Virus genome (UHGV): UHGV-0166854
DNA: 20,402 nt
Reading direction: 5' to 3' (one strand)
From: a virus
Part shown: piece by piece, positions 9,241 to 11,767 of the stretch
Layout: every line of letters begins with the position of its first letter
Numbering within the stretch: the first letter of the stretch is position 1
Position numbers and translations under genes: made by a program
Notes under the pieces: model-generated
What the model saw: the letters and a program-made list of their open reading frames with translations, nothing else
Told to the model about the DNA's origin: nothing
The model's database searches: none

Positions 9241-9400
9241 ATGCCATTTTTCCGCGAACTTCCCGTTTTTTAGTCGTGCATGCATCAGGTGCATGGTTTT
9301 GCATGCGTCAGTCTTGCCCGTTCTGTCCGTGCGCCGCCAGAGCTAGCGCGGATCCAGAGTTGTCATGCAACTGCATTAAAACCGACCCATAAAGCGGGCA

Positions 9401-9419
9401 GGCGTGGCGGGGAAAGCAT
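9401..9419 (+). other. cos cohesive-end sequence of 186/P2-family phages (GGCGTGGCGGGGAAAGCAT)
   Basis: Exact 19-nt match to the cohesive-end sequence I recall for coliphage 186 (P2 differs at two positions). Location between the A/tum region and Q is as expected. Confidence 0.7.
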
Positions 9420-9638
9420 TGCGCGCCAGCAGTGATGCGTAATAATAAAAATTATCCTCTGAGCGCGTCGTGATGGCGCTGTCGTGGTCGCTGCTGGTTC
9501 GTTGGTGGTCGGGTGTGTTCGTGCGCGTGAGACGCATCTGATGCGTGATGGTGGTGTGCATGGAAAAGCCACCAGGAGCAGCGGCTTTACAGGAGTGGCA
9601 GGATTCAAACTGCTAATTATGTTTCTACTATGATTAAA

Positions 9639-10643
9639 CTAATTTACATGTATGTAGAGTTCACCGTCGCCAGACCAATCGGGACACTCTAAAACAAGCC
9701 CAAACTGCTTGAATATTTCATCAATGATTATTGTTATCTCCCGAAAATCACCAAAACCTGTAATGTGCTGGTCATTAAACTTCCCATAAAGATTCTGAAA
9801 AGCAATGCCTAATTCTGATAATTGATATCTTATATTTGAGTTGGATAGTGTAAGGGATAGCTTTGGATCGTATTCTTTAATATTGATGTTTAGAGAATGG
9901 ACATAACCCATCGCATAAGCATAAGAGTTGATGATTAGCCTGATACGTTTTTTTACTTCGAGATACATGTCATTCAGAGAAATATTACCGTACTTATAAC
10001 CCCAGATGAGTTTTTCAATCTCGTCAGATACTTCATTTACAACAGTGTCAAGATTCTCTAAAAATAAATCGATAGTTTCTTGAGGGGCAGACCCCGAAGA
10101 CATGTAATTAGCGAGATATTCAGACCATGCACGCGTGGCTGAGATAAGAAGCGCGCTACCATACTCGTTGACTGTAAAGTTTTGGGCTAAGCATGTTAGT
10201 AAGTTTTTTTCATGTACGTGCACTAATTCATGGTGAATGCGATGGATGACTGCGAGGTATCCTTCTTCTTTCAGTTTTAAGAAGCTACCATCATTGAAAA
10301 GCTCAACAAAAAAATCAATCGATAGCACAAGGGTATATTCTTCACATAGCCCATCATTGCCAATTTTTGTTACTAACTGCCCGACGGCTGCGCCCTGTTT
10401 GCTATTGGTAAATGAACTAGGGGATTTGTGTTGGTAAGAGGATGTTACCTTTTGAAGAGCTTCACTGAAGTTATAGGAAACAATCACGCATTTTAATTTG
10501 GAGATATCAAGATTGAGATTTTTTGTTAAAGCTCGGATAGCTTCTAGTGTGAAATTACCGATATTATTTGCTTCTTGCTCAGTAGCGAAACCTTCGAGGG
10601 TTATTTTAAAATCAGTTTCCAAAATATTAATCTCCGCGCCCAT
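9639..10643 (-). CDS. AT-rich cargo protein (334 aa) with HExxH zincin-like motif (HRIHHELVHVHE); candidate phage-borne defence/exclusion gene
   Basis: Uninterrupted ORF with low-GC, Asn/Ile/Lys-rich composition unlike the flanking phage genes; HELVH encoded at 10218-10232 (checked on the minus strand). Inserted between cos and Q, where P2 and 186 have no gene to my knowledge. Confidence 0.8.
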   Translation of the reverse strand: MGAEINILETDFKITLEGFATEQEANNIGNFTLEAIRALTKNLNLDISKLKCVIVSYNFSEALQKVTSSYQHKSPSSFTNSKQGAAVGQLVTKIGNDGLCEEYTLVLSIDFFVELFNDGSFLKLKEEGYLAVIHRIHHELVHVHEKNLLTCLAQNFTVNEYGSALLISATRAWSEYLANYMSSGSAPQETIDLFLENLDTVVNEVSDEIEKLIWGYKYGNISLNDMYLEVKKRIRLIINSYAYAMGYVHSLNINIKEYDPKLSLTLSNSNIRYQLSELGIAFQNLYGKFNDQHITGFGDFREITIIIDEIFKQFGLVLECPDWSGDGELYIHVN

Positions 10644-10661
10644 TGTTTTGATATTCGATGC

Positions 10662-10690
10662 ACTATAGCTTTCGCAGATTGCATCTTCAA
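10662..10690 (-). promoter_or_regulatory. Candidate sigma70 promoter for the cargo gene (minus strand: TTGAAG, 17 bp, TATAGT)
   Basis: Hexamers read on the minus strand in the 77-bp gap between the Q stop and the cargo gene ATG. Confidence 0.3.
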
Positions 10691-10720
10691 TAATGAGCGC
10701 AGAGATTGTGGCGGCCTAAG

Positions 10721-11767
10721 TTATTCTGGGTTGTCGAGGGTGTACTCTTTGAATCTGATGACCTCCATGCCGAGCCAGTCATTTACCTCCCTGAACCTGT
10801 CCTGTAGCGGCGACAGCTCGTTGCGCACAAATACCTTTGCCACCTTCTCAACATCACCGAGTGAACCGATATTCTCGGGCTTGCCGCCCATGAGCTGGAA
10901 CGGTACGCGGTGCGCGTCCATCAGATCGGCGGCACTGGCCTTCTTGATGTTGAAAAAGTCATCCTTTGTGGCGACCTCGCTCAGTGGCACGATTTTGATG
11001 CCGTCCGGTTTTCCGCCGGGAGCGTAGAAAAACAGGTTCTTAAAGTTGCCGAGCCCTTTTGAGTTGCGCATCGCCTCGCGCAGCGATTCGACGTCGGTCG
11101 CGCTCTGCGCCGGGTCAGTCACATACATGATGTAACCCGCGTGCGCGCCGTTCTGATAATACTTGCGGCGGAACAGCGTCGCGGATTCATTCAGCCAGGC
11201 GGAATTTAGCGCGCTGAGATATTCGGGCAGGCCGTAAATCTCCTGATTAATGTCGGGCTCCAGCAGGTGAAACACGGTATCAGGCGCGAACTCGTGCGGC
11301 TGGGTGAAGTTTTCCACAAACCAGAAAATCGAATCGTCGACTCCGCGTCGGGTGTATTTGGCTGGCGAGGCCAGCAGTTTGATTAACTGGCCGGTGACGC
11401 TGTGGCGCTGCTCAAGAAAGGCGTTACCGAACACCAGATAATCGAGCGCAAAGCGGCTGAAATCCTGACGGGATAACAACGGGTGCGGAATGTAGGTGCT
11501 CGCGAGCACGTTACGCTTAACATAAATTGGCGAGCTGTGATGCACGGCAGAGCGCAGGCTCTTTGCCAGCCCTGAGAAGCTGACCGGCGGCTCGTACCAT
11601 TTGCCGTTACTGATGCACTCGACGTAATCCAGAATGTCGCGCTTATCGAGTACCGGCACCGGCTCGCCGAAGGTGAACGCTGTCGTTTTTGGCGGTGTGC
11701 TGGCGGTCAGTTGTTGTGGTTTGCTGGCCTTTTGTGCGTTGGCTTTACGGGATTTTTGTTTACCCAT
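10721..11767 (-). CDS. Q: Portal protein (P2 gpQ family)
   Basis: 348 aa; size, position next to the terminase ATPase and sequence (for example YQNGAHAGYIMYVTDP) fit P2 gpQ. Confidence 0.9.
   Translation of the reverse strand: MGKQKSRKANAQKASKPQQLTASTPPKTTAFTFGEPVPVLDKRDILDYVECISNGKWYEPPVSFSGLAKSLRSAVHHSSPIYVKRNVLASTYIPHPLLSRQDFSRFALDYLVFGNAFLEQRHSVTGQLIKLLASPAKYTRRGVDDSIFWFVENFTQPHEFAPDTVFHLLEPDINQEIYGLPEYLSALNSAWLNESATLFRRKYYQNGAHAGYIMYVTDPAQSATDVESLREAMRNSKGLGNFKNLFFYAPGGKPDGIKIVPLSEVATKDDFFNIKKASAADLMDAHRVPFQLMGGKPENIGSLGDVEKVAKVFVRNELSPLQDRFREVNDWLGMEVIRFKEYTLDNPE

Follow-up and report, generated by a model that had tools for sequence, protein, structure and literature searches.

What is an AT-rich gene doing between the cohesive-end site and the portal gene of a 186-like prophage? 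The question is raised by a stretch of 20,402 nucleotides of the UHGV virus genome UHGV-0166854 (hereafter the window), where this interval holds an open reading frame (ORF) for a protein of 334 amino acids (aa), here called the cargo gene. An earlier note on the window had read it as horizontally acquired cargo that encodes a zincin-type HExxH protein and possibly acts in defence. Comparison with empty sites, family profiles, a structural model and the surroundings of homologues indicate that the gene is an acquired and selectively maintained insertion whose product is predicted to resemble gluzincin metallopeptidases; its position and neighbours point to, but do not prove, a new defence against phages that consists of a single gene.

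An AT-rich cassette inserted into the late-operon terminator

Positions 9400-10800 of the window (1401 bp) are 100% identical to the chromosome of E. coli FDAARGOS_1253, which carries a 186-like (Peduoviridae) prophage whose integration adjoins yfiB. The gene order of the prophage is int, CI, cII, fil, replication gene A, tum, DinI, two small ORFs, cos, the cargo gene, portal gene Q, terminase gene P and the capsid genes. The interval between cos and Q contains the following elements:

9401..9419, plus strand: cos cohesive-end site, identical to the annotated 186 cos (U32222 positions 1-19)
9560..9590, minus strand: Rho-independent terminator hairpin with T-run, counterpart of 186 tW and P2 tQ (stem 9582..9568), matched in alignments by the tW region of 186 and by the E. 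coli CX21 empty site
9591..10706, no strand assigned: inserted AT-rich cassette of ~1.1 kb, delimited by alignment to 186 and to the CX21 empty site and by GC
9639..10643, minus strand: cargo ORF, 334 aa, predicted gluzincin-like zinc metallohydrolase, PHROG 11743 (ORF call, profiles and model)
10620..10635, minus strand: possible true start, with GGAG at 10635..10632 lying 9 nt upstream of a TTG at 10622..10620 (residue 8)
10662..10690, minus strand: putative sigma-70 promoter-like site TTGAAG-17-TATAGT, agreeing with the consensus at 9 of 12 positions
10707..10716, minus strand: orphan copy of the terminator 5' arm, AGGCCGCCAC, beside the Q stop, recognized by junction comparison with the CX21 empty site
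10721..11767, minus strand: portal gene Q (homologue of 186 W), directly upstream of the cargo gene and co-oriented with it

The AT-rich ORF that the earlier note placed between cos and the Q stop, in the orientation of Q and P, is present as described; the end that it gave, 10690, takes in the promoter-like site, and the ORF proper ends at 10643. A gap of 77 bp separates the cargo ATG from the Q ORF. GC content is 37.5% in the cargo gene against 55.6% in Q, GC at third codon positions is 36% against 71%, and the cassette as a whole lies at GC 0.34-0.41 against 0.55-0.61 for the neighbouring Q and P genes. Rfam and tRNA scans of the window returned no matches.

In both 186 and P2, the portal stop is found ~170-180 bp from cos with the terminator alone between them (186: cos 1-19, tW 164-187, portal stop 196; P2: cosL 1-19, tQ 160-181, Q stop 187), in keeping with the statement of the earlier note that no gene intervenes there. 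A near-isogenic prophage of E. coli CX21 has the same left-flank genes, with identical protein accessions, and in it 196 bp separate the portal stop from the beginning of the cos match. The cargo gene is absent from this prophage, from 186 and P2 and from 36 of 37 matching phage records, and it is found in 26 of 5426 complete E. coli genomes. Comparison of the cos-to-Q interval with the 186 and P2 references confirms the insertion; the cargo gene is horizontally acquired, and the earlier proposal to that effect is borne out.

The junctions place the insertion more narrowly. On the transcribed strand, the CX21 empty site reads TAA-TCCCCCTC-AAGCCGCCATCATGGCGGCTTTTT, and the window reads TAA-CTT-AGGCCGCCAC-(cassette)-AAGCCGCTGCTCCTGGTGGCTTTTCC. 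This comparison shows that the cassette (~9591-10706) sits within the terminator hairpin: an orphan 5' arm is left by Q, and a rebuilt hairpin follows the cargo gene, the cassette end contributing its 5' arm and the phage backbone its 3' arm and T-run, and now closes the cargo transcript. The segments AGGCCGCCAC and AAGCCGCTGC at opposite ends of the cassette form an imperfect 10-bp direct repeat, which is short and is noted as an observation only. Because the cassette lies inside the late-operon terminator, the cargo gene should also be transcribed by late read-through from P and Q. In the adjoining spacer between cos and the terminator, RefSeq annotates a 61-aa hypothetical protein (9376-9561, minus strand); the same DNA is non-coding in the 186 annotation, and this ORF is probably spurious.

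Both hexamers of the promoter-like site are intact in five orthologous cassettes, and a promoter of its own is plausible for the cargo gene on sequence grounds. The Shine-Dalgarno sequence before the annotated ATG is poor, most homologues begin at a Met aligned with residue 8, and residues 1-7 are disordered in the structural model described below; the TTG at 10622..10620 may be the true start.

The slot itself belongs to a known region. The P2 cargo hotspot has been defined as running from gpA to gpQ and containing cos (PMC9122126; PMC13586616; PMC9519451). The cargo gene lies inside it, on the opposite side of cos from P2 old and tin, which are found at the other genome end, between A and cosR. 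In IMG/VR, we located copies of the cos 19-mer and, for the 93 loci among the matches listed that also had a portal stop, took the length of DNA from cos to that stop; the sample is unsystematic. The slot is empty, at 160-179 bp, in 79 of these P2/186-like loci and occupied, at 374-3208 bp and GC 0.34-0.47, in 14; inserts of at least 930 bp have GC 0.34-0.37. Occupants include the following:

L068: Drt2 (E = 5e-205) with a transmembrane protein
L051: PD-T4-4/HEC-02-like ATPase with a 205-aa partner ORF
L061: PDC-S02-like gene with a transmembrane protein
L124: weak ApeA-like HEPN protein
L154: NA37-like protein
L156: the cargo gene under study
five further loci (inserts of 374-488 bp): a small DUF2188 ORF

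The interval between cos and Q is a minority arm of the P2/186 gpA-gpQ hotspot that holds recognized defence systems. The slot had been called atypical; it does not fall outside the known loci, but it is the less used arm. The location of the cargo gene between A and Q beside cos, its foreign composition and its presence/absence polymorphism (empty in CX21, 186 and P2; rare among E. coli genomes) are those of hotspot cargo. The Q-proximal side of cos is a real if less-used cargo slot, and it is worth scanning when P2-like prophages are mined for defence genes.

Protein family, catalytic motifs and predicted fold

An exhaustive profile search gathered 352 clusters at 50% identity, nearly all of 310-330 aa and aligned over their full length. 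Proteins closely related to the cargo protein, at 42-99% identity and without exception annotated as hypothetical, are known from Escherichia, Salmonella, Citrobacter, Klebsiella, Pectobacterium, Serratia, Enterobacter, Yersinia, Kosakonia, Shewanella, Psychromonas and other genera, with the Salmonella form present in more than 3000 blocks of a contig collection index. Members extend to Vibrio, to Brucella and to metagenome sequences; a Bacillus and a metagenome-assembled genome of Blastocatellia have weaker, partial matches. The cargo protein matches PHROG 11743 (function unknown) at E = 1e-156. It belongs to no curated peptidase family in Pfam or NCBIfam: the Pfam scan gave nothing significant (DUF4907 at a sub-threshold E = 0.12) and the NCBIfam scan no match at E<=1. 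Sequence searches of the PDB, with the single sequence and two profiles, found nothing relevant, and two superfamily members show a weak match to Peptidase_Mx1 (E = 0.0025). The family is uncharacterized and not in the defence-model library searched. The earlier remark that no described family matches the protein holds for Pfam, NCBIfam and PADLOC, but PHROG 11743 already lists the family, which Salmonella carries very commonly.

The HExxH motif noted earlier is present as HELVH within residues 134-145, HRIHHELVHVHE. Two sites are central to what follows:

10218..10232, minus strand: codons for H138-E139-L-V-H142 (HExxH), read from the sequence
10119..10121, minus strand: codon for E175 (in WSEY), candidate third zinc ligand by its conservation and its place on the helix after the HExxH helix in the model

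Across 62 superfamily sequences (~20% identity), E139, H142 and A178 are invariant, and H138, W173, E175, Y176, G246 and G315 are conserved in at least 90%. The subset of distant members alone shows the same pattern, with E175 invariant. The segments of lowest entropy in the family are the HExxH helix and the WSEY helix, and in the cargo protein 33 residues separate the second His from the Glu. Measured against the orthologues of Citrobacter, Salmonella and Pectobacterium, the ratio of nonsynonymous to synonymous substitution rates (dN/dS) comes to 0.22-0.34; the cargo gene is under purifying selection.

The AlphaFold2 model (pLDDT 90.8, pTM 0.90) consists of an N-terminal alpha/beta subdomain, the HExxH helix (126-148), the E175 helix (160-181), a helical C-terminal domain and a final beta-hairpin. 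Foldseek of the model against the PDB returned nothing significant, and the best structural match in BFVD is a viral protein annotated as a peptidase (E = 7.5e-3). Structural matches of the model are as follows:

M1 aminopeptidases: 9.1-7.6
M30 lugdulysin: 8.1
3cmn putative hydrolase: 8.1
M9 collagenases: 7.6-6.2
thermolysin: 6.5
botulinum neurotoxin light chain: 6.5
anthrax lethal factor: 6.2

As in gluzincins, the HExxH motif of the model lies on an alpha-helix within a thermolysin-like fold. The conserved downstream glutamate, the candidate third zinc ligand, is placed by the model on the following helix. The zincin-type assignment made earlier stands, in that superfamily members keep both HExxH and the downstream Glu, and the fold of the model agrees with that of gluzincins. 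We found no transmembrane segment and no signal-like N-terminus in the protein (highest 19-residue Kyte-Doolittle hydropathy 1.19); lacking either, it is unlikely to be a secreted virulence protease. We conclude that the cargo gene encodes a functional, cytoplasmic, probable remote gluzincin-like metallohydrolase, which would bind zinc and be catalytically active. Its C-terminal helices 252-313 are the most variable part in the close clade, and our guess is that they form a specificity or sensor region.

Surroundings of homologues and competing explanations

In Salmonella and Pectobacterium, the gene stays 77 bp after the portal gene, and the cargo beyond cos varies, from AAA_23 with MC5 and CTD9 to DinI plus hypothetical genes. 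Contexts of distant homologues come from a small sample of loci (a narrower alignment gave 12, and broad profiles gave mostly close relatives). Homologues and their surroundings are the following:

Psychromonas marina: island of type I restriction-modification (R-M), VspR and helicase genes
Shewanella: adjoins a NERD gene
Kosakonia: at the edge of a P2-like remnant, adjoining YafO
Serratia fonticola: adjoins a resolvase, a HEPN protein and a pPIWI-associated nuclease
Enterobacter ludwigii: on an integrase-borne island
Brucella anthropi: cargo of an integrative and conjugative element (ICE), beside a Gabija-like AAA_21 and UvrD pair
Vibrio sp.: after a TPR-GreAB-C-PIN system and a STAND-like ATPase
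Colwellia: beside a PycTIR-like TIR protein
forest-soil metagenome contig: between a cyclic-oligonucleotide-based antiphage signalling system (CBASS), Abi_alpha, an R-M system and a PLD nuclease
Vibrio harveyi: near a pair of AAA and S8 protease genes and a filamentous prophage
Marinarcus (weak relative): adjoins putA

The family recurs at defence loci and on mobile elements. Distant homologues are solitary genes, and the family as a whole shows no conserved partner gene. In two distant members the protein is fused at its N-terminus to DUF2971/PDC-S31, an ADP-ribosyltransferase-like domain whose single-gene member Aristaios is a validated abortive infection (Abi) system (PMC11381338, PMC12522546). 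A defence or exclusion role for the cargo gene would fit these contexts.

Some of these loci have further features. In Enterobacter ludwigii (L029 5116-6984) and Serratia fonticola (L024 6042-8011), the homologue adjoins a divergent resolvase/invertase gene (~189 aa), and these resolvase-linked homologues are possibly a mobile or invertible module; a DUF2188 gene also adjoins the E. ludwigii homologue. A co-oriented and tightly linked ORF of ~160 aa with no Pfam match lies downstream in Brucella anthropi (L025 9099-9599) and upstream in Vibrio harveyi (L034 7502-7984); such ORFs may be partners in some clades.

We favour, at a probability of about 0.5, the reading that the insertion is a single-gene cargo cassette encoding a stand-alone latent zinc metallopeptidase for phage exclusion, an analogue of Lit. 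Lit is a latent protease that aborts infection, and it cleaves EF-Tu in the presence of the Gol peptide of phage T4. The horizontally acquired cassette of ~1.1 kb interrupts the terminator hairpin of the late P-Q operon, Q-proximal to cos. Its cytoplasmic product of ~330 aa would have a thermolysin-like (gluzincin) core, in which H138 and H142 bind zinc, E139 serves as general base and E175 as third ligand, followed by the helical C-terminal domain, the part more variable among close homologues. Latency would end once some component of an infecting phage rendered a protein of the phage, or an essential one of the host, open to cleavage, whereupon infection would abort; the mode of action would be that of Lit, carried out by a protein unrelated in sequence. 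Expression would come from the gene's own weak sigma-70 promoter in the lysogen and from late-operon read-through in lytic growth. More tentatively, and with the odds leaning against it, the cargo protein could be the enterobacterial member of an unrecognized and widespread family of gluzincin-like immune proteases (~350 clusters), a second independent Abi protein of the Lit type, with dual expression brought about by the terminator insertion and with the cos-Q arm as a distinct slot.

Several observations weigh against the exclusion reading. PADLOC-DB v2.0.0, the defence-model check proposed in the earlier note, gave 0 families at E<=1. The family is not described in the literature reached by full-text searches (accession, zincin or gluzincin defence, HExxH Abi), and the supplements of Rousset 2022 contained neither the RefSeq accession nor metallopeptidase terms. 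Of the promoter claimed earlier, the site TTGAAG-17-TATAGT is present at 10690..10662, but its match to the consensus does not exceed chance, since the window holds 5 promoter-like sites against 3.0 +/- 1.7 in shuffles; the conservation of its hexamers is uninformative and not significant, because the cassettes are too similar (~10 of the 77 gap positions vary). The zinc site formed by H138, H142 and E175 is a putative one. Guilt by association cannot tell defence from counter-defence or other conflict functions, and a place within the late operon, ahead of the terminator, would be equally fitting for a gene that acts in lytic growth.

This last point leads to what we consider an unlikely alternative, that the gene encodes a protease by which the phage itself counters host defence or satellites; it would be produced along with the late P-Q transcript and would cleave host immune proteins or the Sid, Psu or Delta proteins of P4-like satellites. 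Co-orientation with Q and P upstream of the operon terminator, where late read-through is expected, would suit such a protein, as would the tight linkage to the portal gene in Salmonella and Pectobacterium while the cargo beyond cos changes, and several homologues do reside on mobile elements (ICE, prophages). Many others, however, are found in chromosomal defence islands that have no recognizable phage or conjugation genes, where an anti-defence protein would be of little use; the cassette has a candidate sigma-70-like promoter, and a zincin anti-defence protease is not known as a precedent. Similarly unlikely is a conflict or fitness gene apart from phage defence, be it an interbacterial toxin, a stress protease with an antitoxin or regulator as its substrate, or a gene of the selfish addiction type. 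Type VI secretion system (T6SS) genes do lie near two loci (Hcp in Serratia fonticola, a Tlde1 domain in Kosakonia), toxin-antitoxin parts occur near homologues (YafO, Xre_MbcA_ParS_C), and prophage proteases are reported to have stress roles (PMC10846083). Yet the protein has no secretion or trafficking domain, signal peptide or adjacent immunity gene, the terminator and cos directly follow it in the window, and the recurrent neighbours of the family are defence systems and not T6SS loci.

Were the protein a zincin in fold with non-peptidase chemistry, such as a YbeY-like metal-dependent nuclease or other hydrolase, or a non-catalytic sensor, a conflict role could still apply; we hold this to be distinctly improbable, given that the full gluzincin signature is conserved (HExxH, the Glu general base and a downstream Glu on the next helix), that the best structural matches are all peptidases, and that YbeY has HxxxHxxxxxH instead. 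A decaying or functionless passenger ORF would account for the split or partial copies that exist (PHROGs 30021 and 28537, partial proteins) and for the poor Shine-Dalgarno sequence before the annotated ATG. We judge it very improbable: uninterrupted, full-length copies occur in E. coli, Salmonella, Citrobacter, Pectobacterium, Klebsiella, Serratia and further genera, the alternative TTG start with its GGAG is available, and dN/dS together with a conservation that peaks at the catalytic motifs speaks against a pseudogene, which was rejected.

That an AT-rich gene of unassigned function in the P2 hotspot should prove to be a defence candidate is in line with present expectations in the field, and Lit provides the protease precedent. 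Should the exclusion reading be true, it would add a protease-based, single-gene immune family to a repertoire with few metalloprotease effectors besides Lit. Carriage by many Salmonella and some E. coli clinical strains means that the gene could affect the host range of typing and therapy phages. The candidate is compact, and it is easy to test because the point mutants H138A, E139A, H142A and E175A are already defined.

Other accessory genes lie elsewhere in the window. A pentapeptide-repeat protein (19570-20316, minus strand; 248 aa by ORF call, 278 aa in RefSeq) is encoded in an island of GC 0.30 between a virion-morphogenesis gene and baseplate gene V, a second AT-rich moron of the same prophage. 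A 281-aa ORF (291-1136, plus strand; GC ~0.31, no Pfam match) is found between the prophage integrase and the yfiB side of the chromosome and is possibly cargo located at the element's int-att end. A gene for a DUF2511 protein (2316-2726, minus strand), a further small accessory gene, is found between the integrase and the CI repressor.

Comparison with known metallopeptidases and defence systems

Clan MA(E), the gluzincins (M1, M4 thermolysin, M9, M30), is the group that the model resembles in fold. The cargo protein differs from its known members in sharing 7-13% sequence identity with them, with no Pfam, NCBIfam or PDB sequence match, in its spacing of 33 residues between the second His and the Glu, and in being stand-alone, cytoplasmic and carried on mobile elements. 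Like ImmA/IrrE (M78) and CapP of prophages, ICEs and CBASS operons, it is a small HExxH zincin on a mobile element, and BFVD gives a weak structural match of the model to an IrrE-like phage protein. It is larger than these, however, has another C-terminal domain and lacks an adjacent helix-turn-helix (HTH) repressor partner. Identity with ImmA/IrrE was rejected: the neighbours are the portal gene and the terminator with cos, with no HTH partner, and Pfam M78 gave no match.

As with other cargo of the P2 hotspot (old, tin and the systems described by Rousset et al. 2022 and by Vassallo et al. 2022), the cargo gene is an AT-rich moron with its own promoter-like site, located beside cos between A and Q. 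Old and tin are on the A side of cos, but this gene occupies the Q side, within the terminator of the late operon, and its product matches no known defence model. The window protein has neither the DUF2971 domain nor a PDC-S31 match (Pfam, PADLOC), but the fusion in two distant relatives ties the zincin-like domain to the validated defence domain of Aristaios. Homology to Lit was considered and rejected, as hhalign of the family profile against K-12 Lit gave 15% probability over 17 columns, confined to the HExxH helix, and Pfam U49 is absent at E<=1. The likeness to Lit of the cryptic prophage e14 (Peptidase_U49) is instead one of kind: both are prophage-borne, single-gene, cytoplasmic HExxH proteins of the zinc-protease type, ~300 aa in length.

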